Source of the DNA: Promethearchaeota archaeon
GTDB lineage: Archaea; Asgardarchaeota; Lokiarchaeia; Sigyniarchaeales; SOKP01
Length of the DNA: 32,000 nucleotides
Assembly: GCA_030606485.1 (NCBI GenBank)
Contig: JAUWGH010000008.1
Coordinates: 90,001-122,000 of the forward strand
Direction of reading: 5' to 3'
This document shows, piece after piece, positions 8,064 through 22,408 of this stretch (positions are counted from its first letter, which is position 1; each line of letters starts with the position of its first letter). Under the pieces are notes generated by a model that saw only the letters and a list, made by a program, of their open reading frames with translations, was not told the origin of the DNA and made no database searches. A program made the position numbers and the translations under genes.

Positions 8064-9455
8064 ATGGAAAGTCTACCAAAATCATATGATGTAATAGTTG
8101 TTGGTGCAGGAACCGGTGGAAGTACTGCAGCCCGATTTGCAGCACAATACGGACTCGACGTGTGTTTGATTGACAGCAAAAAAAGGGATCAAATTGGAGA
8201 TAAGATCTGTGGGGATGGAATTGGAACTGAAATTTTTGAATTTCTGAACATCAATCCACCAAAAGGAAAAGAATTAGCATGCCACATAAAAGGTGCTAAA
8301 TTGTATTCTCCAAATTTAAAAAAATGCATAATAATGCTTGACCCAAAGCAAGCAGGATATGTTATCAATCGATTAGAATTCGGTCAACGATTATTAAATG
8401 AAGCAATTGATGCAGGAGTAAGGCAATTTTTAGATAATACTATGGCGTTAGATTTATTATATAAAAGTGGAGCAGTAAATGGAATAAAAGTTAAATTAAG
8501 CAATGGAGAAAAAGCCGATCTGCATTCAAAAATAATAATTGATGCAAGTGGATTTTATTCTCCATTGAGAAGAAATATAAAAAGTTCTATAATTGAGAAG
8601 GAAATTTCTAAAAAGGACTCAATTTTATGTTATAGAGAAATTGTAGATTTTGGTCCTGAAAATCCAAGAGTTAATGATCCAGATTATATAACAATTATTC
8701 TTGATCAAGAAAAAGCACCTGGCGGGTATATCTGGTATTTCCCGAAAAATGAACACTCAGTCAATATAGGATTAGGTGTATTTATGGATTTTAAAGGTAA
8801 AGTTAAAGAATTATATCGAAAAAATGTATTTGAGAATTACGTGAAGACTTCTGAATATAAGATAATATCTTCAGGAGGAGGGGTTGCGCCTGTGAGAAGA
8901 CCAATTTGGTCTTGTGCAGACAATGGGATTATGTTTATTGGAGATGCTGCATGTCAAGTCAGTCCACTTCATGGAGGAGGGATTGACCCTTCAATGCGAG
9001 GTGGATATTTTTCAGCACTTAGTGCAAAAGATGCAATTGAAAGCGAAGACTATTCTATAAATGCTTTATGGAATTATAATTATAATGTAATGACTACTTT
9101 TGGTGCAGAATTTGCCGCTCTTGACCTGTTAAGAATTACTTTACAAAATCTTTCTAATGAAGATTTAAATTTTGGTTTAGAACGTGATTTATTAACTGGG
9201 AAGGAAATATTAGAGATAGCCTCAACGGGAAAAGTTGAATTATCTCTGTTTGATTTAATCTCTAAGGCGATTAAAGGTATATCTCAACCTAAGCTGCTAT
9301 TGGATTTAAATTATATGAGAATTAATATGAATAATATCTCAAGGCATTATAAAAAATTTCCAAAAACAATGGAAAAATTTGAAGATTGGAAAGAAAAAAC
9401 ACAACAAATTTATGGGAAAATAAGAAAACCTAACCACCATAATAGTTCCACATAA
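8064..9455 (+). CDS. Geranylgeranyl reductase family FAD oxidoreductase (probable digeranylgeranylglycerophospholipid reductase)
   Basis: 463 aa. VVGAGTGG, KICGDG, YIWYFPK (YxWxFP), GDAACQVSPLHGGGI. Divergent from the GGGP/DGGGP synthase genes. Confidence 0.85.
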   Translation: MESLPKSYDVIVVGAGTGGSTAARFAAQYGLDVCLIDSKKRDQIGDKICGDGIGTEIFEFLNINPPKGKELACHIKGAKLYSPNLKKCIIMLDPKQAGYVINRLEFGQRLLNEAIDAGVRQFLDNTMALDLLYKSGAVNGIKVKLSNGEKADLHSKIIIDASGFYSPLRRNIKSSIIEKEISKKDSILCYREIVDFGPENPRVNDPDYITIILDQEKAPGGYIWYFPKNEHSVNIGLGVFMDFKGKVKELYRKNVFENYVKTSEYKIISSGGGVAPVRRPIWSCADNGIMFIGDAACQVSPLHGGGIDPSMRGGYFSALSAKDAIESEDYSINALWNYNYNVMTTFGAEFAALDLLRITLQNLSNEDLNFGLERDLLTGKEILEIASTGKVELSLFDLISKAIKGISQPKLLLDLNYMRINMNNISRHYKKFPKTMEKFEDWKEKTQQIYGKIRKPNHHNSST

Positions 9456-9717
9456 AGTTCAGGCGGTCGCCATCTTTTAATCCAGCATCAAGCCCTCCTT
9501 GAAACCTAAAGTGGATGCCATTGATTGTTAAGACTAAGTCTTCTACCATTTCTTCCATATTTTCTTTAAAAAGTACTTCTCTTAAAGGTTCTCCGTTTCT
9601 TTCAATCAAATCTAGAAGTAATTCTCTTAGAGTTATGGGTCTATCTAATTTGATCTCCATATCCCATCGTTGCATAATTGTAATAAATGGAGCTGAAAAT
9701 ATTAAAGTAACACTCAA
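9430..9717 (-). CDS. MoaD/ThiS/SAMP/Urm1-type ubiquitin-like protein
   Basis: 95 aa, TTG start. INGIHFRFQGGLDAGLKDGD beta-grasp motif and C-terminal Gly-Gly. Overlaps the convergent reductase gene by 26 nt. Confidence 0.75.
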   Translation of the reverse strand: MSVTLIFSAPFITIMQRWDMEIKLDRPITLRELLLDLIERNGEPLREVLFKENMEEMVEDLVLTINGIHFRFQGGLDAGLKDGDRLNFMWNYYGG

Positions 9718-9873
9718 TATATTTCACATGTCTGAAATTCAAACTCTATGAAATCAATATTCACTTCTCTTTTAATATTTTTATTTTATAAAATATAAAT
9801 ATTCAAGAATAAATTCTTCTGACTTATCTATTGAATAATTATTAAAAATTTAGATTTAAAAAAGGGTTTCATA

Positions 9874-10551
9874 TTATTTTTGCAATGCATTTAAAGCAAT
9901 TTTTGTAGAAATCTCTGCTTGCTCAACACTAACCATACCTATTGCCACAGAACAGATATTATGTTTAGAAATATAATCAAAAGCTTTTTGTGGCTCTATT
10001 TTTCCTGCCGCTAAAGTTTTCATTCCTAAAAAAGAGTAATTTTTATTTTGGTTAATAAGTGCTTCCAGCTTTTTTTGATCATTCATGAAGATCCCATTTG
10101 TGTTAAAGGGAATTAAAAATGCTTTAACATTTAATGATTTTTCAAAAGCATATGTTAGAGTGGAAATTGGGTTATGAGCAGCTATTCCTGGAATCACACC
10201 TCGGGAGGAGATCTCATCCAATAAATTAATTAATTTAATATTTTTATTATCAGCCACCATTCCGTGTACAAAAATTAGTTTTGCACCAACATCAATCAAA
10301 TCTTCAATTAAGGGATCAGGTCCTGGAAATGTAGAACCGGTAATTACATAATCATTGTGTGTTTCTTTCATTATTTTAGCAGCTTCACAAATTTTTCCAG
10401 CGGGTATTGCTTCAATACCACGACCTCCAGCTTTATAACACGCTTCTAAAATTTCAAGCATAGCATCTATATGATTTAAAAATTTTCTACGCCAAATCCG
10501 AGCATTAGTTCCGAATTGACCTGCACCTATAAATGGAGAAGTTCCCGTCAT
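9874..10551 (-). CDS. Conserved archaeal hypothetical protein, probable TIM-barrel/aldo-keto-reductase-like fold
   Basis: 225 aa ORF with GTSPFIGAGQFG and GMKTLAAGKI motifs. The true start is probably upstream of 10551 (see findings). Confidence 0.6.
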   Translation of the reverse strand: MTGTSPFIGAGQFGTNARIWRRKFLNHIDAMLEILEACYKAGGRGIEAIPAGKICEAAKIMKETHNDYVITGSTFPGPDPLIEDLIDVGAKLIFVHGMVADNKNIKLINLLDEISSRGVIPGIAAHNPISTLTYAFEKSLNVKAFLIPFNTNGIFMNDQKKLEALINQNKNYSFLGMKTLAAGKIEPQKAFDYISKHNICSVAIGMVSVEQAEISTKIALNALQK

Positions 10552-10678
10552 AACAAGTGGAATATTTTCTCCATCAATTTTACAAAAAATACAATCCCCT
10601 CCTAAACCCTTTTATTTTAATTATAAGAAAACAAGTAAAAATTAGTATAGAATTTAAACCCATTTTTTATTAAATTAT

Positions 10679-11524
10679 TTAATGTCCTTCAAATATTGAA
10701 TCTCGTTTTTCTTTTAAAGCTTGCATTGATTCCTTAAGATCATAAGAAGTCATGGCTTTTCTCAATCCTCTATTTTCTAAATCCAAAGTTCTTTCTAAGA
10801 TATCCTTAAAATAAGAATGCATAGTTTTTTTCATCAATTTTATTGATAGGCTTGGACCTTTTGGAGGTATCAATCTCAAGGCAATGTCTCTAGTGTATGG
10901 CATTAATTCATCCGGTGGAAGAACTTTATTAATACCTAAACCCATTTCATATGCTTGTTTAGCTGTTATTTTATCTCCAAAATAGATAATTTCTTTAGTC
11001 TTTTGAAATCCTAAATAAAAAGGCAAAATAAAATTCATTCCAAATTCAGGTATAGCAGCTCTTTTTACAAAATAAAAACCTAACCAAGCATCTTCCGACA
11101 TATAAATCAAATCTGCCCCAACTAATGACATTGTTATGCCTGCCCCTACAGCTAGACCATTAATAGCTGCAATAACTGGCTTAGTAAAATTCCAAAATTT
11201 CATGCACAGTTTTTTTTGGGCAATATCCATTATATTAAGTTCCTTTTTAATTTCTGGAGGAATTTCATCAAGAAATTTCAAATTAAAATAGCCACCTGAG
11301 GAGTAGGCATTGGCTTCTTTACATCCAGTCATTATTAAGACTTTTGTATTGCGATCTTTTTCCATATCATCCAATACAGTGTAAATTTCTAAAAAAGTTA
11401 AAAAAGATAAAGCGTTCTTTCTTTCAGGTCTGTTGAAAGTAAGTGTACAAATACCATTTTCTTCTTTTTCATAAGTAATATCTCTAAAATCCTCAATCTT
11501 CAATTCGAAAACACCATTTTTCAT
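10679..11524 (-). CDS. Enoyl-CoA hydratase/isomerase (crotonase) family, probably isomerase-type
   Basis: 281 aa. TFNRPERKNAL, YSSGG, KPVIAAINGLAVGAG. The two hydratase glutamates appear replaced (GAGITM, GFYF), and a single acidic residue sits in IPEFG, as in PaaG/ECI-like isomerases. Confidence 0.88.
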   Translation of the reverse strand: MKNGVFELKIEDFRDITYEKEENGICTLTFNRPERKNALSFLTFLEIYTVLDDMEKDRNTKVLIMTGCKEANAYSSGGYFNLKFLDEIPPEIKKELNIMDIAQKKLCMKFWNFTKPVIAAINGLAVGAGITMSLVGADLIYMSEDAWLGFYFVKRAAIPEFGMNFILPFYLGFQKTKEIIYFGDKITAKQAYEMGLGINKVLPPDELMPYTRDIALRLIPPKGPSLSIKLMKKTMHSYFKDILERTLDLENRGLRKAMTSYDLKESMQALKEKRDSIFEGH

Positions 11525-11576
11525 TTAAGATTTTTTAATGTTAATTTAGTATCATCTTTTTGATTTTTAAATATAA

Positions 11577-12662
11577 TTATTCGATTACATTTTCCTCGAA
11601 CATTTTTTTGTTTATTTCAACGCCTAAACCTGGTTTTTCCAACGCTTTTACGATTCCTTTTTCAACCTTTATTGGTTCTTCAAGTATTTGATATTCATCT
11701 GGAATGAATGGATATTCTAACCATGGACATCTTGATGCCATTACAAAATGGATATTAGCAGCTAAAATATGCCCCATACCAAAAACATGGGGGATACAGC
11801 GGATTCCTTTAACTTCAGCCATCGCATCAATTTTTTTCAATTGCAAATAACCTCCACTACGAGTTACATCAGGTTGAATTATGTCATACGCTCCTTTAGT
11901 AAGAATTTCATCGAATCGATACATTCCGAAATCATTTTCTCCACCAGCAATCTCCACAGGTGATTTCCTCCTTAGTTCAGCAAGTCCATTAAGATTATCA
12001 GAAGTTAATGGTTCTTCGAGCCATGTGATGTTATATTTTTCACAAATTTTCGCGATTTTTAGGGCTTCATTAACGGTTTCATAACCTGAATTTGCATCAA
12101 CCATTATTTCAATATCTGGAAAAACATCTCTTACCGTCTTTATAAGTGCCTCATCCTTTTCAGGAGTTTTTCCAATCCTTAACTTAACTGCATTAAATCC
12201 CCCCAAATCTAATGCAGCTTGAATTGCGCCTACAGCAGCCCTAGGATTTTTGTATGGTCTAAACAATGATGCATAAGCCCTTACCTTTTTCTTCATCCCT
12301 CCTAGAAGACGATAAATAGGAGTCTTTACAGCTTTTCCCACTAAATCCCAGAGAGCTACTTGTATGACCGATGTAGCCATAGGAATACCAAATAGAATTC
12401 TGTTACTTGTATGGTAAATTGTATGAAAGATATCCTCAATCATAAAAGGATCTTTTTTTAATAATAGAGGTTTTAAAGCCTCATCAATAAAGCGCTTTTG
12501 GGCACTATTTGACAAGTTCCAATGAGATAACCCCCATCCTTCAATACCCTCATCGGTCTTGATATTTACATATAAACCAGTAGCTTTTAGGGATGGCATT
12601 GCACCAATTTTAATCTTAAAATCTAATTGTAATACATGCGTTTGAACATCTGTTATTATCAT
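11577..12662 (-). CDS. Mandelate racemase/muconate lactonizing enzyme family (MR subgroup, probable acid dehydratase/racemase)
   Basis: 361 aa. ALWDLVGK, KLRIG (KxR), metal ligands in MVDAN / WLEEP / GGEN, QPD...PH dyad. Confidence 0.9.
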   Translation of the reverse strand: MIITDVQTHVLQLDFKIKIGAMPSLKATGLYVNIKTDEGIEGWGLSHWNLSNSAQKRFIDEALKPLLLKKDPFMIEDIFHTIYHTSNRILFGIPMATSVIQVALWDLVGKAVKTPIYRLLGGMKKKVRAYASLFRPYKNPRAAVGAIQAALDLGGFNAVKLRIGKTPEKDEALIKTVRDVFPDIEIMVDANSGYETVNEALKIAKICEKYNITWLEEPLTSDNLNGLAELRRKSPVEIAGGENDFGMYRFDEILTKGAYDIIQPDVTRSGGYLQLKKIDAMAEVKGIRCIPHVFGMGHILAANIHFVMASRCPWLEYPFIPDEYQILEEPIKVEKGIVKALEKPGLGVEINKKMFEENVIE

Positions 12663-12693
12663 ATTTTTTCTAAATCAACGGGAATTATTTAAT

Positions 12694-14115
12694 TTATTGT
12701 GATGAAATAAATTGATTATATTCATACATCATTTTTAAGGCCGTAATAGCTTCTTTTACTCGGTTCATTACTGGAATTTGAAATCTCAATGCTGGTTTTA
12801 ATATATAATCAAACACCCACCGAGAACCAAAAACACAAATAATGCAAGGCTTTTTAAATTTAGAGGAAAGATTTTTTATAATTCTTAATGATGGCATAAT
12901 GCTTACACCTAGCAATTCTAAGGGTAATCTTGGTACAGTAAAAAGGAACAATACACTATCAACATTATTGTCGTTGAAAATTGCCTTTAATGTAGGATTA
13001 AGAGTAATCATTTGAGATGGTCCTAGATCTACCGGATTTTTTAATGACACCCAATCGGGAGCCACTGCTCTCATCGATTGAATTGTATTTTCCCCAAGTT
13101 CAGCAAGAATAAGTCCTTGTTTTTCTAACTCATCGCATGCCAAAATTCCGATACTACCAGAGCCGGTTATAATGGCTACATTTTTTCCCCTAGGTAAAGG
13201 TTGTATAGCAAAAACTTGAGCAATATTAAACATCTCATAAAAATTATCTACTCGAAAAATACATGGATATTGCTTAAAGATAGCGTCAAATATCCGATCA
13301 TTACCAGCTAATGACCCAGTATGACTTTTAATTGCGTTAGAACCCAATTCACTTCTCCCATTTTTAAGAATTATAATTGGTTTTGTTATTTTTTTCAAGA
13401 CTTCGATAAAAGCATCACCTCTCTTTACTCCTTCTAGGTAAATGGTTATCACTTTAGTATCTGGATCATTTTCAAAATATTCTATCATATCAATTTCATC
13501 GACATCAATCTTGTTCCCTAGCGTTACAACCTTTGAGAAACCAATTTTCTGACCTACACTAGCCCAATCAATAAATACATTTCCTAAAACACCAGATTGA
13601 GCAATGATTGCAATATTACCTTTCACCGTTTTTGAAAAATCTACATCAGAACTAGTGAATTCATTATAAAAATTCGTAACACCTACACAATTAGGACCAA
13701 TTATACGAATATTAGAACTTTTAACGATTTCCTCTAATTCCTCTTGATATTTAATGTATTTCTTAATACCTGTTTCTGCAAAACCAGCTGTTTCTATTAT
13801 TATTCCTTTTACATGCTTATCTACGCAATCTCTTACAGCTTGAACTACACTCTCATTTCCTACTAAAATTATTGCTAAATCAATATTATCAGGAATATCC
13901 TTTATGTTTTTATATGCTTTATGTCCAAAAATTTTATCTTTATATAAATGAACTGGGTATGTCTTAAATTTTGAATTTAATAGATATTTTGTATTCCAAA
14001 ATCCAAATCTTGGAGAATCCGAAGCTCCAATTATTGCAATCGAGTTGGGAGCAAAAAATAAATTTAAGTTATTACATTCTGAATTATCGTTATTATGTTT
14101 AATTTCCTTCTCCAT
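12694..14115 (-). CDS. ADP-forming acyl-CoA synthetase alpha subunit (CoA-binding, AcdA-like)
   Basis: 473 aa. PNSIAIIGAS, AGFAE, IIGPNCVG, AQSG, LGNKID, YLEG, SHTGSLAG (phospho-His), NPVDL. No beta subunit in the window. Confidence 0.85.
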   Translation of the reverse strand: MEKEIKHNNDNSECNNLNLFFAPNSIAIIGASDSPRFGFWNTKYLLNSKFKTYPVHLYKDKIFGHKAYKNIKDIPDNIDLAIILVGNESVVQAVRDCVDKHVKGIIIETAGFAETGIKKYIKYQEELEEIVKSSNIRIIGPNCVGVTNFYNEFTSSDVDFSKTVKGNIAIIAQSGVLGNVFIDWASVGQKIGFSKVVTLGNKIDVDEIDMIEYFENDPDTKVITIYLEGVKRGDAFIEVLKKITKPIIILKNGRSELGSNAIKSHTGSLAGNDRIFDAIFKQYPCIFRVDNFYEMFNIAQVFAIQPLPRGKNVAIITGSGSIGILACDELEKQGLILAELGENTIQSMRAVAPDWVSLKNPVDLGPSQMITLNPTLKAIFNDNNVDSVLFLFTVPRLPLELLGVSIMPSLRIIKNLSSKFKKPCIICVFGSRWVFDYILKPALRFQIPVMNRVKEAITALKMMYEYNQFISSQ

Positions 14116-14332
14116 ACTTTTTTTAATATTTTCACGTTTAATAATTAATTGATATATCGATTAAATTCAGATATTTTATTTTCCATTAAATTTTTAAAAA
14201 CTTTTAAACAATATACCTTTTTAATCCATAACAAATAATAATTTATTATTTAAATCTGAAAGCTAATTAGAAATTATTAAATTAAAATAATTATAGAGAA
14301 TAATGGAGGTATTTTACAAAAAGGTGTAAAAA

Positions 14333-16261
14333 ATGTCTGAAATTCGCATTGGAGTATTTGTTTGCAGATGAGGAATAAATATTGCGGGGATATTAGATGT
14401 TCCAAAAATTGTCGATGAAATAGGTAAAATGGAGAATGTTTGGTCTTGGGAGTATTTAAATATATGTACAGATCCAGGAGCGACCTTTATTATTGAAAAG
14501 ATTAAAGATCTCGAGTTAGATCGGGTTGTAGTTTCAGCTTGAACACCAATAACACATCAACCGGTTTTTCATAGTGTCTTAGAGGATGCAGATTTACCAC
14601 CACGATTTCTTCAATTTGTTAATATTAGAGAACACTGCAGCTATGTCCATCAACAAGAACCAGAAATGGCTACACAAAAAGCGATTGAATTAATTAAGGC
14701 AGGCATTGCAAGAGCTGAGGTTTTAGAAGATATACCAACTAAAACAGTTCCAGTAGAGAAAGCAGCATTAGTAGTTGGTGGAGGAATAGCGGGATTGACA
14801 GCCAGTATTGATTTAGCAAATGAAGGGTTCAAGGTATACCTTGTTGAGAAAAAATCCACCACTGGTGGAAGAATGGCTCAATTGGATCGAACCTTTCCAA
14901 CCGATGATTGTTCCATATGAATTCTCGGACCTAAAATGTTGGCAGCCAATAGAAATCCAAATATTACGACAATGACAATGGCCGAAGTTTTAGAAGTGGA
15001 TGGCTATATTGGTAATTTTTCCGTTAAGGTGCGTAAGAATCCAAGATATGTTTACGAAGATATCTGTACTGGTTGTGGTGCATGTTCAGATGTATGTCCC
15101 ATATATATGCCAAATTATTTTGATGAAAATCTCTCGGCTAGAAAATGTATAGATGTAGCTTTTGCACAAGCAGTTCCTGCAGTTTGGGATCTTCAAACTG
15201 ATTGGTGTGTAGAATGTTACGCTTGTGTTGATTCTTGTGATGTTCATTGTATTGATTTAAGTCAAGAACCCGAAATTGTTGAATTTGAAGTAGGAACAAT
15301 TATTATTGCTACTGGTTGGGATATATATGAACCAGAAGAATATGGCTACGGAAAATATGATAATGTTATTACACAAATTCAACTTGAAAGAATTATCGCT
15401 CCGAATGGTCCAACTCTTGGACACTTAAAGCGGCCATCTGATGGAAAGAGACCAAAAAATATTTTGTTCATAAATTGTGTTGGGTCTAGAAATGAAGAGC
15501 ATCCATGGTGCAGTAATGTGTGTTGTTTATTGTCGATTAAAAATTCGAAATTAATCAAATCAGAATATCCAGATTCTAATATTGTAGTATCATATATCGA
15601 TATGAGATGTGCTGGAAAAGCATATGAAGAGTACTACAAACGCTCTAGAGACGCTGGAATCATGTTTATAAATGGGAAAGTGGGAACTTTACGAGAAAAT
15701 CCAGAAACAAAAAATCTCATTGCTACTATGGAGTCAATCGGAACTGGGGGTATTATTGAATATGAAGCCGATTTAGTGGTATTATCTTCGGCATCGCTAC
15801 CCTCAGCAGGTACAAATGAAATTGCAAATATTTTAAAGGTAGAAAAAAGTCCGAGTGGATTTTTAAAAGAATTCCACTCAAGACTTGATCCAATTGAGAC
15901 AAAAATAACTGGGATTTATATTTGTGGTTCGTGTCAAGGACAAAAAGATATCGGTGCAACTGTTAATCAAGCAAGAGGTGCAGCACAAGCTGCCTCAATC
16001 CCAATGACTGCTGGAGAATATACAATAGAATTAATTCGTGCACAAGCAAATGATGAACGTTGTGCCAAATGTTATAAATGTATTGAAACATGTCCTTATA
16101 GCGCTATATCAGTTGATGAAGCAGGGAAAATCGTAGTTGACCTTATTAATTGTAAAGGTTGTGGTATGTGTGCAGCAGTTTGTCCATCGATTGCTATAGA
16201 ATTACGTTATTATAGAGATTATCAATATAACGCAATTATTGATACATTATTTGAAGCGTAA
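14333..16261 (+). CDS. hdrA: Heterodisulfide reductase subunit A (flavin-based electron-bifurcating subunit), selenoprotein with 3 Sec, 642 aa
   Basis: One continuous frame from ATG 14333 (AGGTG RBS at 14322-14326) to TAA 16259-16261. In-frame TGA at 14369-14371 (codon 13, VFVCR-U-GINIAG), 14540-14542 (codon 70, VVSA-U-TP..HQ) and 14918-14920 (codon 196, FPTDDCSI-U-ILGPKM), each where HdrA has a conserved Cys. Also VVGGGIAG, two ferredoxin inserts, QLER and CSNVCCLLSIK. Merges track ORFs 14666-14920 and 14936-16261. Confidence 0.93.
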
Positions 16262-16279
16262 ACATAAAGAGGTAAAAAA

Positions 16280-16708
16280 ATGAGTTCTGATATAAAAATT
16301 GCGTCTTTTATGTGTTGGAAATGAGGGTATGGGGCGGGTGACATGGCGGGTACAATTCGAGCGCAATATCCGACTACAATTAGAGCAATATTAGTACCTT
16401 GCGCAGGAAGAGTTGGCTCTGAATTAATAATGAGAGCTATTGGTCAAGGTGCGGATGGTATTTTAATAGTTGGATGACACCCAGGTGAATGTGACTATGA
16501 AATCGGTAATAAACTGGCATACAGAGAAGTTGAATATATTAATCAAGTTCTAAATGTACTGGGTCTCTCAGATAAAAGAGTAAAGATGGAATATTGTAGT
16601 TCTGCAGAAGGGCAAAAATTTCAGCAAGTAGCAATTAATTTCGACAAGCTTATACGAAATCTTGGGAAAAATCCCCTTAATAAGAAAAGTTCCGACAAGA
16701 ATGAATAA
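16280..16708 (+). CDS. vhuD: Hydrogenase iron-sulfur subunit delta (MvhD/VhuD), selenoprotein with 2 Sec, 142 aa
   Basis: Absent from the ORF track. ATG 16280 (GAGGT RBS) to TAA 16706-16708: MSSDIKIASFMCWK-U-GYGAGDMAGTIRAQYPTTIRAILVPCAGRV...GADGILIVG-U-HPGECDYEIGN...YCSSAEGQKF...LGKNPL. TGA at 16322-16324 (codon 15) and 16475-16477 (codon 66), both at [2Fe-2S] Cys-ligand positions of MvhD. Confidence 0.93.
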
Positions 16709-16759
16709 TACGAGAAAATTTTAGTCGTGTTATGACTACCTGTTGCAGAGGTGTTGGAA
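16690..16759 (+). promoter_or_regulatory. Eukaryote-like SECIS element (selenocysteine insertion RNA structure)
   Basis: AUGA (16701-16704), then a 9-bp stem AUAAUACGA/UCGUGUUAU (16705-16713 with 16725-16733), an apical loop GAAAAUUUUAG and GA (16734-16735). Lower stem is CGACA/UGUUG (16693-16697 with 16741-16745) or UUCCGACA/UGUUGGAA (16690-16697 with 16752-16759). Lies at the 3' end of two TGA-containing genes. Confidence 0.82.
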
Positions 16760-16880
16760 ATAAAAAGTTTTTTAAAAAATATATAGAAATTTGTTCAAAA
16801 ATTAAATTGGAAAAAATAACGTTAAAAGATTCATAAAATTAAAAGTTAGGTTAATATTTATCTAAAGAAATATAAAATTC

Positions 16881-18017
16881 GTGATATTCATGGAGCCAAT
16901 GGAAGAATTACTGATAAAATATGATGATGTTAAGAGTATAATGGCAACGTTATTAAAAGAGAAAATAGTTTCTAAAATCATTAGTGGAGAAATTAAAAAA
17001 GGACATTTTAATGTATCCCCGAAATTGGTTTCAAAACTTGAAGAATTAGAAGATTTGCCACTTTCTCAACTCATTTCTTATGGTTATGCTCGAACCGATA
17101 GTGCATCTAAATTTTTACATAAAAATGCAAATGGCGCATTAGACGAAAAAGTTGGACTTATTGCTCGTCCTTGCGATACAAGAGCGATAATTGAACTTAT
17201 TAAATTACATCAAATCAATCCTGATAATTTATTTATTATTGCAATTGAAGATATGGGGATGATCCCGTCTTCAATGATTACAAGGATATTTAACAAAAGA
17301 AAGGAGTTTGATCAGAGTAAAATTATTCGGGATAAATTAACCGCTGAAAATCTTACCCTTATTTTAGATGGTGGGAGTTTAGAGGTTTTAGAGTTTAATG
17401 AAAATTTAAAAATAGCAGATAACTGTTTGAGATGCCTAAGAAAAGTTCCTGTTATGGGTGATTTATCGATAAGTGATATCGGAATCTCTGTAAAATCAGA
17501 TGATTTGATATTGCGTGTTTATTCTGAGAAGGGAAAGTCTGCTGTTGAGAAAGCTGGAATCAAAACCAGAAAAATTCCCGATGACCTAAAAAATCACAAT
17601 TCTGAAAGAGTAGAGACTATTTTAAAAAATGCTGAAGAAAAACGCACTAAAGATTTGGAAGAATGGAAAACTATGAATCAAGATGAAAAATTGGAAATGT
17701 TAAACAAATGCACTATGTGTGGTCTCTGCATTCGAGGTTGCCCCGTATGTTACTGCATTGATTGTATTTTAATGCAAAAACGAAAGGAAAAAACAATTAA
17801 TAATATTACATTTCAATTAACCCGCGTTGCACATGTCGCTGACAGATGTGTAGAATGTGGTAATTGTGCCAATAATTGTCCAATGAACTTACCATTATCT
17901 GAATACTTCCAATCATTAATTGAAACATTTAAAGAGAAATTTAATTATATTGCTGGAGAATCAGTTGATGATATTCCATTCCGTTCAGGAAAAGCAATTA
18001 AGGAAATGGAATTATAA
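16881..18017 (+). CDS. FdhB/FrhB-family (F420-dehydrogenase beta subunit-like) iron-sulfur protein with C-terminal 4Fe-4S dicluster
   Basis: 378 aa. ARPCD..AIIEL....QI..DN, NCLRC, CTMCGLCIRGCPVCYCIDC, FQLTRVAHVADRCVECGNCANNCP. Confidence 0.8.
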   Translation: MIFMEPMEELLIKYDDVKSIMATLLKEKIVSKIISGEIKKGHFNVSPKLVSKLEELEDLPLSQLISYGYARTDSASKFLHKNANGALDEKVGLIARPCDTRAIIELIKLHQINPDNLFIIAIEDMGMIPSSMITRIFNKRKEFDQSKIIRDKLTAENLTLILDGGSLEVLEFNENLKIADNCLRCLRKVPVMGDLSISDIGISVKSDDLILRVYSEKGKSAVEKAGIKTRKIPDDLKNHNSERVETILKNAEEKRTKDLEEWKTMNQDEKLEMLNKCTMCGLCIRGCPVCYCIDCILMQKRKEKTINNITFQLTRVAHVADRCVECGNCANNCPMNLPLSEYFQSLIETFKEKFNYIAGESVDDIPFRSGKAIKEMEL

Positions 18018-18095
18018 AAACTGCATAAAAAAATGATTTTTTTATTAAATTCTTATCTATTATATATCCAGACAGTGAGATAAAGTTGCACCCTG

Positions 18096-20150
18096 ATGCT
18101 GGATGATGTTAAGATGATTACAAACAAAAGAATGATTAAGCATAAAATAATTGGTTTAACATTTATTTTTAGTGTTATTTTGTCTTCCTTTATTATTTTA
18201 AAATGTATTGATTTAAACAATAATTGTACCCGATATAATTCTACAAAGATTCTGACTTCTAATTCTAATAATTTTAACATATTGACATTTTGGGATCAAG
18301 AAATTGAACGCGTAAATAATACTTTATCAAATATTGAACTAGGAGAAAATTCTACTTTAAAATATACTAATCCTAATACAAAAGAAGAATATGATTTTAT
18401 TGTTCAAGAAATTCACTTTGATTCTCCAAATTGGGTCGATGCTACTCCCACAATTATAAAACTGCATGGATATCTTCTATACCCAGAAGAATTAAAAAAT
18501 AAAAATCCTGGATGTTTATGTATGCACGGTTTGGGTGGTAATGCTAACAAGTCTTTTGAGTTTGCTGCGCCTTATTTAGAAAATGGTTTTATGGTTTTAT
18601 GCCATTCTCATCCTGGGCATGGAAAATCCGAAGGGACAAACCCTACGCCAAATAATTTTTATTATGAAGGAGAATATAACAAATCATCACATCATTATTT
18701 GACTCTTTGCGGGGCTATTCAAGGGTTAAGAGTCTTGGAAAGTCTTAATCTTGTTAACAACTCAGAAATTATGGTTACTGGAAGTTCATATGGTGGATTA
18801 AATACCATGTATTTATCTGGTGTTTGTGGAGAGAGAATTGCGGGGGCAATACCATATATTGCTGTAGGTGATTATGAAAAGAATAATGAAGATCCTACGA
18901 AGCTTTTATTTTGGGTATGGAATAAAAATATTAATGAAATCCCTGATTCTTATTGGAATGAACAAAATCTAAGAACCGATCCAATATATTATTTAGCATC
19001 AGATAAGGTACCGCCAATTTTTTGGGAATTTGGCACTACAGATGAATTTTTTTATCATCATTGTATTATTAATACCTACGAAAAGGTTAATCATACTGAT
19101 AAATATCTTCAAATTCATCCTAATGGACACCATGGATTATTTGATTATGAAAATACGACAAAATTTTTTATTGATTATATTATTAGTAAGGGTTCAGCTC
19201 CTCCTAAAATTGATATTAAGGATCACATAAAAGGAAACAATATATTGGGTGATTATTTAGAAATTGAAGTGCATGTAGATTCGGATGTAAATATAGAATC
19301 AGTTCAAGTTGTATATAAATATCTTGATATTATAGGAACTTGTTGGGAAAAAGTTAATCTTGAAGAATCTGAAGAAGATATTTGGATAGGTATTTTAAAT
19401 CCAGGAGTTATTACATCAGATGTTGATTATTATATAATTGTTAATTTAGAAGGCGAAAATAATGTATGGTTCAGTTCGAAAATTTATACTGTAGGAAAAC
19501 TTATTAGTAATTTAACTATTCCATTTTATATTTTATTCATTGTTTTCATATCTTTTCCAGCAATTTTGTTAATTTGGAGGAGATATAAAAAAAATGTTAA
19601 AGAATTAGAGGAAAAATTTCAACGTGGAGCTAAAAAAAATTTAATCTTAGAAGTTTCTTTTTTGGGAATAACCGAAATGCTTTTTTTTATATCATTAATT
19701 TTACCAATAGCAGAATTTGGAAACAGTGGAGTATCATGGTCTTCAATATTTGTCTTTAACAAGTTATATACTTGGAAAGCGGTTTTTGGAAGTATGGCTC
19801 CATTTTTAACATCCATATTCCTTATTATATTTATATTATTTTTCCATATAAGCCTAATGAAACCAATAATTGCAGGTTTTTTCAAAATTGCTTATTTTTT
19901 ATACGCATTACTATTATATTCTGTCATTTCAGGTGTTATAGGGGGCTCGTCTGAGTTGGATAATTTTGGAATAATTAATTTAGGAATAGGCTTTTATTTA
20001 ATATTAATCGTGGCATTGATGTATATTAGTATAGGCGTTTGGAAACGATATTATCAAATAAATTTTAGAATAAGAGAACCTAAAAGGAAATTTTATAATA
20101 TTGACAGATGGTTTAGATTAAAAAGCTCAAGTAAGAAAAGGACTGATTAA
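18096..20150 (+). CDS. Surface-exposed alpha/beta-hydrolase (serine esterase/peptidase-like) with C-terminal multi-pass membrane domain
   Basis: 684 aa. N-terminal hydrophobic segment, MHGLGG, GSSYGG nucleophile elbow, GTTDEFF (Asp), PNGHHG (His), then about 5 TM segments. The start may be one of the downstream ATGs. Confidence 0.75.
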   Translation: MLDDVKMITNKRMIKHKIIGLTFIFSVILSSFIILKCIDLNNNCTRYNSTKILTSNSNNFNILTFWDQEIERVNNTLSNIELGENSTLKYTNPNTKEEYDFIVQEIHFDSPNWVDATPTIIKLHGYLLYPEELKNKNPGCLCMHGLGGNANKSFEFAAPYLENGFMVLCHSHPGHGKSEGTNPTPNNFYYEGEYNKSSHHYLTLCGAIQGLRVLESLNLVNNSEIMVTGSSYGGLNTMYLSGVCGERIAGAIPYIAVGDYEKNNEDPTKLLFWVWNKNINEIPDSYWNEQNLRTDPIYYLASDKVPPIFWEFGTTDEFFYHHCIINTYEKVNHTDKYLQIHPNGHHGLFDYENTTKFFIDYIISKGSAPPKIDIKDHIKGNNILGDYLEIEVHVDSDVNIESVQVVYKYLDIIGTCWEKVNLEESEEDIWIGILNPGVITSDVDYYIIVNLEGENNVWFSSKIYTVGKLISNLTIPFYILFIVFISFPAILLIWRRYKKNVKELEEKFQRGAKKNLILEVSFLGITEMLFFISLILPIAEFGNSGVSWSSIFVFNKLYTWKAVFGSMAPFLTSIFLIIFILFFHISLMKPIIAGFFKIAYFLYALLLYSVISGVIGGSSELDNFGIINLGIGFYLILIVALMYISIGVWKRYYQINFRIREPKRKFYNIDRWFRLKSSSKKRTD

Positions 20151-20299
20151 ATTTCTTTGAAGTGTAAAAAAAAAATTTAATTTCAATATTATCAGACAAG
20201 AACTACGAGAAAAGAGACTGCTTATAAATATAGATTAAGGTAAATTTGAAAAAATGTTATGGGTTTTTATTTTTTATAGTTCATTAGTGAGTAGATCGG

Positions 20300-20370
20300 T
20301 GGGATCAGACCGTCCGTCGTAAATCATCCATTAGATAGATGTCATTAACTTGTTAAGTCATCATTTCCCA
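20300..20370 (-). ncRNA. Box C/D 2'-O-methylation guide sRNA
   Basis: Minus strand reads UGGGA-A-AUGAUGA (box C)-CUUAACAAGUUA (12 nt)-AUGA (D')-CAU-CUAUCUA-AUG-G-AUGAUUU (C')-ACGACGGACGGU (12 nt)-CUGA (box D)-UCCCA. It has a 5-bp terminal stem, two canonical k-turns and two 12-nt spacers. A possible TATA (TTTAAATA) lies at 20396-20389. Confidence 0.87.
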
Positions 20371-20508
20371 AATTTATATTGAATTTGATATTTAAAAAAA
20401 ATATGTGAAAAGTAGAATAATTATAAAATATTTTTTAATATAGAATTATTTAAGTAATTATTCTAAAACAGATAATAATTATATAAAAAAAATATAGTGT
20501 GAAGAAAA

Positions 20509-21237
20509 ATGTCTTTACCGTCCAAGAAAATTATTGAAATTCAAGATAATGTTTACTCTCACGAGTTCAAAATGTTAAATCATGTGAGTGAATTAATTTT
20601 TAATAATGATAAATGCATTGAATGTGATTTTTGTGCAAAAGTATGTCCTAAAGAATGCATTGGCTCTCCAGAAGATATGGGAGTTGAATCAGATTTAAAA
20701 AGATATGTCGATATTGATAAATGTATATTTTGTGGTATATGCGCTTTCACTTGCTCAGGATTTGCATTAAATTTACGAATTAATGGTGAGCCCAAACTTC
20801 TTCTTATAGAGAATGGATCTCTTCCTGAATTAAAACCAAAAGAACTTAAAATTAAGGAAACAGGTCAGAAAATTCAAAAATTGGTAGAAGGAACTACGAA
20901 GATTGAAAGCACAGAAAAGAAAGTTAAAACTGTTGAGGATTTTGTAAAAGAATGCGTAGTTGGAGCACTCTCAAATAAAGGAACCGAAATTATCATAGAT
21001 AAAGATCAGTGTATTAACTGTTTTAAATGTCAAAAGGCATCTGAAAAGAGTTATCCAAAAATAAATGTTGATATTACCCGTGCTCGTATCCCAAATGAAG
21101 GTGAAGTCTCATCTGTATGGAAAAGAATTACTGAAGCATTATTAGGCTTGCCAGCAGCTATTACAGATCTTCAAGGTCCAACAAAAAAGAAAATGACCGA
21201 GCAAGTACTTAATTTATTAGGAAAACAAGCAAAATAA
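20509..21237 (+). CDS. 4Fe-4S ferredoxin-domain protein (polyferredoxin-like)
   Basis: 242 aa. CIECDFCAKVCP, CIFCGICAFTC and a degenerate CINCFKC motif. Confidence 0.75.
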   Translation: MSLPSKKIIEIQDNVYSHEFKMLNHVSELIFNNDKCIECDFCAKVCPKECIGSPEDMGVESDLKRYVDIDKCIFCGICAFTCSGFALNLRINGEPKLLLIENGSLPELKPKELKIKETGQKIQKLVEGTTKIESTEKKVKTVEDFVKECVVGALSNKGTEIIIDKDQCINCFKCQKASEKSYPKINVDITRARIPNEGEVSSVWKRITEALLGLPAAITDLQGPTKKKMTEQVLNLLGKQAK

Positions 21238-21406
21238 ATTTTTATTTAACTCTTTTTCAAACTTTTCCTGATTTTTAATCCTAAATAAATAAGATCTTTT
21301 TTTAAAAAGATTAAATATTAAGTGAAATTAAATACAATTATCTTACATTAAAATTAATTAAAATAATCTGATAAAAATTAAATAAAATAAAGTAGGTTGA
21401 AAAAAT

Positions 21407-22408
21407 ATGGTAAAGCGTGTAGCTATTAATGGCTTCGGGCGAATCGGCAGAAATTTTTTCAGAGCTGCTTGGGGAAATCCCGGTCTTGAGATTGTTAGTA
21501 TTAACGATCTCTTTGCCCCAGAATATCTAGCATATGTGTTAAAATATGACACTGTATTTGGCCGATTTAAAGGAGATATCAAACACACTGAGAATAGCCT
21601 AATAATTGATGGACGCGAGATACCCATAACGGCAGAACGAGATCCTGCAAATCTTCCTCACGCAAGTAATAATATTGACGTCGTATTAGAATCTACGGGA
21701 TTTTTCACTAAGCGAGATGGAGCTGCAAAACATCTTGCTGCTGGAGCAAAAAGAGTCCTAATTAGTGCTCCTGCCACAGATCCTGATGTCACTGTAGTCA
21801 TTGGAGTAAATGATGATATAATAAAAGATGAACATAAAATTATCAGCCTTGCGAGTTGTACAACTAACTGTTTGGGGCCAGTCGCCAAAGTGTTACATGA
21901 TAATTTTACTATTACTAGCGGATTTATGACAACAATTCACTCTTATACCGGAGATCAAAGAACAGTAGACACAGCTCGAAAAGATTCTCCAATTAAAATG
22001 ACTCGTGGAAGAGGTGCGGCTGCAAATATGATACCAACCAGTACAGGTGCTGCAAAAGCAATTGGTGTAGTAATTCCTGATTTACAAGGGAAGATAGATG
22101 GTGTAGCGGTTCGTGTACCAACTCCAGATGGTAGTGTTGTAGATTTAACGGTTGTAGTTGAGAAGGATGTAAGCGTAGATGCTGTAAATTCTGCCATGAA
22201 AGTGGCAGCAGAAGGTCCACTAAAAGATATTCTCGAATATACTGAAGACCCAATTGTTTCAAGTGATGTTATTGGTAACCCTCACAGTTCTGTCTTTAGC
22301 GCTATGATGACTAAAGTTATTGGTAAAACTGTTAAAATATTTTCATGGTATGACAATGAATGGGGCTATTCCATGAGATGTGTTGAACTAATTGTAAATA
22401 AATTATAG
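21407..22408 (+). CDS. gap: Glyceraldehyde-3-phosphate dehydrogenase, type I (bacterial/eukaryotic class)
   Basis: 333 aa. AINGFGRIGR, ESTGFF, ASCTTNCL, IPTSTGAAKA, RVPTPDGS, WYDNEWGYS. Confidence 0.95.
   Translation: MVKRVAINGFGRIGRNFFRAAWGNPGLEIVSINDLFAPEYLAYVLKYDTVFGRFKGDIKHTENSLIIDGREIPITAERDPANLPHASNNIDVVLESTGFFTKRDGAAKHLAAGAKRVLISAPATDPDVTVVIGVNDDIIKDEHKIISLASCTTNCLGPVAKVLHDNFTITSGFMTTIHSYTGDQRTVDTARKDSPIKMTRGRGAAANMIPTSTGAAKAIGVVIPDLQGKIDGVAVRVPTPDGSVVDLTVVVEKDVSVDAVNSAMKVAAEGPLKDILEYTEDPIVSSDVIGNPHSSVFSAMMTKVIGKTVKIFSWYDNEWGYSMRCVELIVNKL

Follow-up and report, generated by a model that had tools for sequence, protein, structure and literature searches.

An MvhD/VhuD-family adaptor gene with two in-frame UGA codons, very probably decoded as selenocysteine, directly downstream of hdrA in a Lokiarchaeon

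A reading frame at positions 16280-16708 in the DNA of a Promethearchaeota archaeon is crossed by two TGA codons, raising the question of whether it is one intact gene and, if so, what the two codons specify. The frame lies in a 32,000-nucleotide stretch, here called the window, and an earlier note on that stretch had described it as an unannotated gene of 142 codons with a ribosome-binding site, hidden from the ORF track by TGA at codons 15 and 66. This description was borne out. The read-through translation contains in-frame TGA solely at those two codons and ends at TAA, GAGGT is placed 6 nt before the ATG, and the frame is absent from the ORF list because translation table 11 splits it into pieces of 14, 44 and 40 codons. 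The TGAs fall in the motifs C-W-K-U-G (U15) and G-U-H-P-G-E-C (U66). The alignment of both UGAs with Cys, their conservation, the selection on the surrounding codons, a covarying lokiSECIS, the Sec machinery of the genome and the use of UGA as an ordinary stop elsewhere lead us to consider it very likely that 16280-16708 is an intact 142-residue [2Fe-2S] adaptor of the MvhD/VhuD family of a Lokiarchaeon, with both UGAs decoded as selenocysteine (Sec). The features discussed are collected in Table 1.

Table 1 Features of the locus (window positions) and of the wider genome (positions preceded by a contig or locus handle)
Feature	Position	Strand	Remarks
hdrA	14333..16261	+	642 codons; TGA codons 13 (14369-14371), 70 (14540-14542) and 196 (14918-14920); TAA stop (16259-16261)
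hdrA-vhuD spacer	16262..16279	+	18 nt; Shine-Dalgarno-like GAGGT 16269-16273, 6 nt before ATG
MvhD/VhuD-family gene (vhuD)	16280..16708	+	142 codons plus TAA; putative Sec codons U15 (16322-16324) and U66 (16475-16477)
lokiSECIS	16701..16735	+	AUGA 16701-16704; GA 16734-16735; overlaps last two sense codons and TAA of vhuD
T6 tract	16768..16773	+	33 nt after SECIS; possible archaeal terminator (weak)
FdhB/FrhB-like iron-sulfur flavoprotein gene	16881..18017	+	378 aa; Pfam FrhB_FdhB_C plus 4Fe-4S dicluster
tRNA-Sec	C2:189906-190018, L001:1501-1613	-	47.1 bits, just at Rfam cut-off
SelD homologue	C1:19411-20202	+	184 bits; one in-frame TGA
Sec-type HdrA-MvhD pair	C1:56652-58996		full FrhB/FdhB-family gene follows
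Sec-type HdrA-MvhD pair	C8:215849-218229		>431-aa ORF without Pfam domain follows
Sec-type HdrA-MvhD pair	C10:156182-158550		full FrhB/FdhB-family gene follows
51-codon ORF with the fourth strict lokiSECIS match	C1:355016-355171, L139:617-772	-	outside the window

Comparison of the read-through protein with Pfam PF02662 (FlpD/MvhD), a check that the earlier note had proposed, gave a match with E=1.5e-39 and 135.3 bits against a cut-off of 22.3, in which residues 7-129 align with profile positions 1-123 of 123, over the full length and across both TGAs. This match, together with independent assemblies that carry both TGAs, places the gene far beyond chance. Solved MvhD, VhuD and ElpC chains in the PDB matched the protein with E=1e-29 to 1e-33, ElpC being the second-best match. 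The NCBIfam VhuD model NF045873 (Methanococcales F420-non-reducing hydrogenase subunit) was not reached, at 126 bits against a cut-off of 215, and the product is therefore a member of the MvhD family rather than a methanococcal-type VhuD. Since hydrogenase genes are also not adjacent, 'VhuD' serves here as a family-level name only; the identification as VhuD in the earlier note holds for the family and the two Sec sites, and its hydrogenase connotation is dropped, the neighbouring gene being FdhB/FrhB-like and not vhuAGU. The five-Cys set of the MvhD/FlpD family, made up of a CxxC close to the N-terminus, one central Cys and a GCxxxxC motif, is present at positions 12, 15, 41, 66 and 71, with Sec codons at 15 and 66, and all five positions are invariant in 97-99 orthologues, the nearest of which comes from a Promethearchaeota MAG and shows 96% protein identity. 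Scans of the window found no tRNA and, at gathering thresholds, matched 0 Rfam families.

In the alignment, chains 9sw2_D, 8rvu_F and 5odc_D have Cys opposite both U15 and U66, and Methanococcus maripaludis VhuD (9sfi_K) has its two non-standard residues there, which supports the statement in the earlier note that methanococcal VhuD carries Sec at the equivalent two sites. The same genome encodes four Sec-type HdrA-MvhD pairs (contigs 12, 1, 8 and 10), in each of which both MvhD sites are TGA, as well as seven all-Cys MvhD paralogues, each with Cys at both equivalent sites. Among orthologous loci of Promethearchaeota in the public genome collection, both TGAs were kept in 97/97 and 99/99, to about 56% identity, and they were also kept in the orthologues of about 40 relatives from four families of the order, to about 48% identity. 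The locus thus shows what is expected of an archaeal selenoprotein gene: UGA aligned with Cys, and UGA conserved with coding constraint downstream.

The gene directly upstream is hdrA, whose product matches the NCBIfam HdrA2/HdrA models over positions 5-640 (E=6.5e-223), yet scores under their equivalog cut-offs. The gap between the two genes is exactly 18 nt, and the tally of five recoding events for the pair stands as previously claimed, with three in-frame TGAs in hdrA and two in vhuD. HdrA U196 aligns with the non-standard residue of M. maripaludis HdrA (9sfi_A), which is Sec197 (PMC13518236), and with Cys205 of Methanothermobacter marburgensis HdrA; U13 and U70 stand opposite Cys in every solved HdrA chain. 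Across orthologous hdrA genes, codon 13 is TGA in 73/73 and codon 196 in 93/93. Codon 70 is TGA in 19 loci and Cys in 55, which points to repeated Sec/Cys exchange at a single site of the N-terminal domain. Adjacency of hdrA and vhuD is direct in 97/99 loci, the gap measuring mostly 13-19 nt, with GAGGT found within -16..-4 in 51/95. The two genes would be translated from one mRNA. Two runs labelled 'RNA?' (flagged as probably DNA) reach only short stretches of hdrA and of the spacer downstream. [quoted passage not shown]

The coexistence of Sec-type and Cys-type HdrA-MvhD pairs in one genome would also suit an account in which translation mostly terminates at UGA15 and yields full-length protein only when selenium is plentiful, with all-Cys HdrA-MvhD pairs used otherwise, like the Vhu/Vhc enzymes of Methanococcus; in M. 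maripaludis, a switch between Vhu and Vhc according to selenium supply has been described (PMC13518236). The strict conservation of the five UGAs argues that recoding is efficient enough to be selected for, and we regard predominant termination as improbable. Such partial read-through would concern the regulation of the gene and not its identity, and is compatible with the decoding of both UGAs as Sec.

The putative signal for this decoding lies at the end of vhuD. The lokiSECIS begins 5 nt before the TAA, which lies within its 5' arm, and consists of a stem of 9 bp (16705-16713 paired with 16725-16733; 9/9 pairs) and an 11-nt loop, GAAAAUUUUAG (16714-16724). It is the sole match in the window with nine pairs and a GA tail, and in form, position and compensatory stem changes it agrees with the lokiSECIS as defined by Mariotti 2016. 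An equivalent hairpin lies within about 25 nt of the stop codon in 81/91 orthologous loci, and the overlap with the stop recurs in the closest orthologues at an offset of -5, as a genus-level trait. The loop starts with G instead of the usual A, as it does in 9 of 52 distinct sequences, and its positions 3-5 are AAA in all 52.

Stem statistics from the 52 distinct sequences, which are inflated because hairpins were chosen for at least 8/9 pairs, gave two to five standard pair types at each of pairs 2-9 with almost no mismatches, 21-44% pairing in shifted registers, and 0/1000 shuffles reaching the observed pairing. Neither the compensatory variation, found at 8/9 stem pairs, nor the positional specificity is affected by that selection. 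Pairs were counted on a gapless stack instead of on a MAFFT alignment, in which eight of the 35-nt elements, those of the window group, were displaced by two columns. Folding of the whole of 16700-16885 gave an energy no better than that of shuffles (z=-0.21), and support for the SECIS therefore comes from pattern, position and covariation, not from energy.

All five UGAs lie upstream of the AUGA, at distances of 226, 379, 1783, 2161 and 2332 nt. The 18-nt spacer is too short to hold a second SECIS, and the single element at 16701-16735 would serve all five codons, a model already published for Lokiarchaeota. In the whole genome (7.5 Mb of both strands) the strict lokiSECIS pattern has 4 matches, of which 3 immediately follow MvhD genes with two TGAs; a search of the 300 nt downstream of the Sec-type pair on contig 1 found no canonical lokiSECIS pattern. 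A conserved terminator following the SECIS was considered and found no support: the T6 tract (Table 1) is not conserved, with a run of at least five T within 120 nt in only 30/81 orthologous loci.

The fourth strict match follows a 51-codon ORF on contig 1 (Table 1). The predicted product of this ORF combines a single hydrophobic helix with a tail rich in Pro and Gly that ends ...PPPNGGGUC, the TGA being the penultimate sense codon, and a perfect lokiSECIS begins 35 nt past the stop. Orthologues from the same genus retain both TGA and SECIS. More remote copies, from other genera, terminate in ...GSNSUPG and ...TGGGGUAC; these carry lokiSECIS elements of their own, whose stems differ in sequence. 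The ORF falls outside the seven Asgard selenoprotein families of PMC11227280.

The genome encodes the set of components by which an archaeal Sec machinery is recognised, namely tRNA-Sec, SepSecS, EF-Sec, SelD and a PSTK-like gene. The tRNA-Sec has a 9-bp acceptor stem and UCA in its anticodon loop. A 25-nt insertion directly 3' of that loop is probably an intron. SepSecS (387 bits) lies 229 nt from the tRNA-Sec gene, and SelB/EF-Sec (264 bits) about 3.4 kb from it. The SelD homologue also has a TGA in frame, which makes selenophosphate synthetase a selenoprotein too, in agreement with reports on Lokiarchaeota. The match to the PSTK-like gene covers its full length and scores 140.8 bits, under the TIGR03574 cut-off of 290.5. 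UGA also serves as an ordinary stop: of 1571 long reading frames in the genome, 201 end in TGA, and past these stops the next TAA or TAG is a median of 10 codons away, in line with the expectation for real stops.

Public protein collections, NCBI-sourced entries included, hold the vhuD product and its orthologues at full length with W at both Sec sites (P0004, P0007, P0015, P0018, P0048 and others, P0015 and P0018 being NCBI-sourced). Some gene callers had evidently chosen a code with TGA=Trp on such contigs, and Asgard selenoproteins are systematically mis-annotated with Trp in public gene calls. Taken at face value, these entries agree with a reading in which UGA specifies one of the standard amino acids in this organism (Trp under codes 4 or 25, for example), with Trp at positions 15 and 66 of an ordinary gene. 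We consider this extremely unlikely, given the frequency and spacing of TGA stops described above, the confinement of in-frame TGAs to positions that are Cys in homologues, the presence of tRNA-Sec, SepSecS, EF-Sec and SelD together with a conserved SECIS after the gene, and the unfitness of Trp at a cluster-ligand position in this family. A label of another kind in the public data also drew attention: the contig DATKTW010000168.1, assigned to 'Candidatus Nanopelagicaceae bacterium', has a Loki-type hdrA, a two-TGA vhuD, a lokiSECIS and the FdhB-like module, probably because its taxonomy was wrongly assigned or it was mis-binned.

Comparison of vhuD with its 96%- and 77%-identical orthologues revealed more synonymous than non-synonymous changes before and between the TGAs, and synonymous changes were common after them; third codon positions carry most of the substitutions in all three TGA-bounded segments. 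An independent assembly from another study differs by three vhuD variants, all of them synonymous and at third positions, with both TGAs intact; the gene with its two TGAs is likewise reproduced in metagenomes that other studies assembled independently. Near-identical DNA occurs in cold-seep or marine-sediment samples. The frame contains 0 other stops or frameshifts. These patterns indicate that purifying selection acts on either side of the UGAs. That the gene might be the decaying pseudogene of an MvhD paralogue, its TGAs being inactivating mutations and its function covered by the roughly seven all-Cys copies, can be dismissed as having a negligible probability, since conservation and coding constraint exclude it: the same two TGAs persist at the divergences given above, the synonymous bias extends before, between and after them, independent assemblies agree, and the divergence of the orthologues excludes assembly copies of a single sequence.

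With both codons very probably read as Sec, their roles can be approached through the solved homologues. Between the vhuD product and chain D of 9SW2, the MvhD of M. marburgensis, the alignment has no gaps and an offset of one, so that U15 corresponds to Cys16 and U66 to Cys67; positions 12, 15, 41, 66 and 71 correspond to Cys13, 16, 42, 67 and 72, and His67 and Glu70 to the conserved His68 and Asp71. According to PMC13580544, Cys16 of MvhD is a conserved additional cysteine located between the cluster and FAD that is not a ligand, and a bioRxiv report (10.64898/2026.04.10.717634) places the equivalent residue as a cysteine near the cluster, Sec19 in the MvhD-like BamF. U15 is thus most likely a non-ligand, redox-active residue beside the [2Fe-2S] cluster. 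The cluster needs four ligands, the family has five invariant Cys positions, and the Cys16 equivalent is a non-ligand, which makes U66 a probable ligand by elimination; Sec66 would then bind the cluster along with Cys12, Cys41 and Cys71. The accessible portions of the open structural papers give the non-ligand status of Cys16, and no direct statement of the four MvhD ligands was found in them. The claim in the earlier note that both TGAs fall at [2Fe-2S] ligand positions accordingly needs to be halved: it fails for U15 and is retained for U66, by elimination only. For the partner subunit, the Cys202/Cys205 pair of M. marburgensis HdrA has been proposed to take part in a thiol/selenol relay to FAD (PMC13518236 and PMC13580544).

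The gene that follows vhuD encodes an FdhB/FrhB-like iron-sulfur flavoprotein, whose product matches just the C-terminal FrhB/FdhB Pfam domain, in addition to the dicluster. Its best PDB matches are 9t1s_M, 7bkb_E and 8rvu_E, the FdhB/ElpB subunits of Hdr complexes (E=2e-35 to 2e-30). The order hdrA, vhuD, FdhB-like gene is kept in 94/99 loci, and two of the three other Sec-type pairs in the genome also precede FrhB/FdhB-family genes. Among the flanking genes scanned (8064-22408), no hydrogenase subunits were found, vhuG, vhuA and vhuU included. The best explanation appears to be that the adaptor does not link a hydrogenase here, and that the FdhB/FrhB-like protein is its likely electron-input partner. 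From solved homologous complexes and the adjacency to hdrA, the vhuD product is predicted to bind a [2Fe-2S] cluster and to dock on HdrA; our best reading is that it would connect, as a [2Fe-2S] adaptor, an input subunit of the FdhB-like kind with a bifurcating HdrA. Genes for cofH and cofE are present in the genome, over their cut-offs, and F420 can therefore probably be made, a plausible substrate.

A broader proposal, which we put forward tentatively and rate as possible rather than likely, is that Lokiarchaeia have a three-gene module, conserved and free of hydrogenase, for HdrA(Sec), MvhD(Sec) and an FdhB/FrhB-like subunit, by which a non-methanogen would supply flavin-based bifurcation with electrons taken from F420H2 or a similar cofactor. 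The vhuD orthologue group would be the adaptor of this module and not a hydrogenase subunit, and selenium would mark the whole of the disputed stretch that separates the HdrA flavin from the cluster in MvhD. In such a module Sec66 would give a Se-ligated [2Fe-2S] cluster, and Sec15 and the Cys193/Sec196 pair of HdrA might exchange electrons between the subunits via a selenenylsulfide or diselenide. A literature search found no paper joining Lokiarchaeota, HdrA, MvhD and FrhB.

For annotation, the consequence is that standard ORF calling loses vhuD and public calls mistranslate both of its Sec sites as Trp. The general interest of the published arrangement is that one eukaryote-like SECIS appears to serve five UGAs in two cistrons over 2.3 kb, in a host belonging to the archaeal lineage closest to eukaryotes. 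Added here are the apparently different roles of the two Sec residues, of which U66 is probably a ligand of the cluster and U15 corresponds to the non-ligand relay residue singled out by recent cryo-EM papers; the tight synteny of vhuD with an FdhB/FrhB-like partner instead of a hydrogenase; and a strict SECIS pattern specific enough for genome-wide use.

Several known systems invite comparison. BamF of the class II benzoyl-CoA reductase of Geobacter metallireducens shares an MvhD-homologous [2Fe-2S] adaptor beside an HdrA-like bifurcating subunit, and the non-ligand cysteine next to its cluster is the Sec19 mentioned above; unlike the protein studied here it comes from a bacterium and has extra domains, with a length greater by over 100 residues, and one Sec is mentioned in the accessible part of the report. 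In the ElpC-ElpB-HdrA and FdhB-MvhD-HdrA complexes (8RVU, 7BKB, 9T1S), an MvhD-type adaptor bridges an FdhB-type flavo-iron-sulfur subunit to HdrA, and the neighbour gene in the window matches those FdhB/ElpB chains; the window contains no FdhA/ElpA-like gene. The best solved relatives are the MvhD proteins of M. marburgensis (9SW2-9SW6 chain D) and Methanothermococcus thermolithotrophicus (5ODC chain D), with E=1.6e-33; all five Cys positions correspond, whereas the methanogen proteins are all-Cys and part of the MvhAGD hydrogenase.

[quoted passage not shown] It belongs to the same family and length class, matches over residues 7-133 (E=5.6e-30), has Sec at both equivalent sites and pairs with a Sec-containing HdrA, in which Sec197 corresponds to U196 here. 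It differs in its vhu hydrogenase operon, its methanogen-type SECIS and an HdrA with a single Sec.

The closest counterparts are the HdrA-VhuD pairs of Lokiarchaeota. Both this type of gene and the recoding signal common to the pair are already known from that group (Mariotti 2016, PMC4989117; Huang 2024, PMC11227280), and 16280-16708 is an instance of this type, because PMC4989117 describes exactly such an arrangement. Mariotti 2016 describes a VhuD some 150 residues long that contains two Sec; an HdrA in which five positions can hold Sec, up to four of them at once and the one near residue 200 in every case, and which stops at UAA or UAG; hdrA and vhuD always in tandem with a very short spacer; and one lokiSECIS, downstream of VhuD only, for which action on as many as six UGAs across about 2 kb was proposed. 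Huang 2024 extends the survey to 1439 selenoprotein sequences in 227 Asgard genomes. The locus in the window shares with the published pairs the lineage (Promethearchaeota/Lokiarchaeia), hdrA directly upstream on the same strand, a two-Sec VhuD, a multi-Sec HdrA ending in UAA with a site near residue 200, and a single element of AUGA, 9 bp, 11 nt and GA at the end of vhuD. Here HdrA has three Sec within the published range of up to four, the loop starts with G and not A, the SECIS overlaps the end of vhuD by 8 nt, and a downstream FdhB/FrhB-like gene is present that the available text of the two papers leaves undiscussed. None of these differences from the published pairs is essential.
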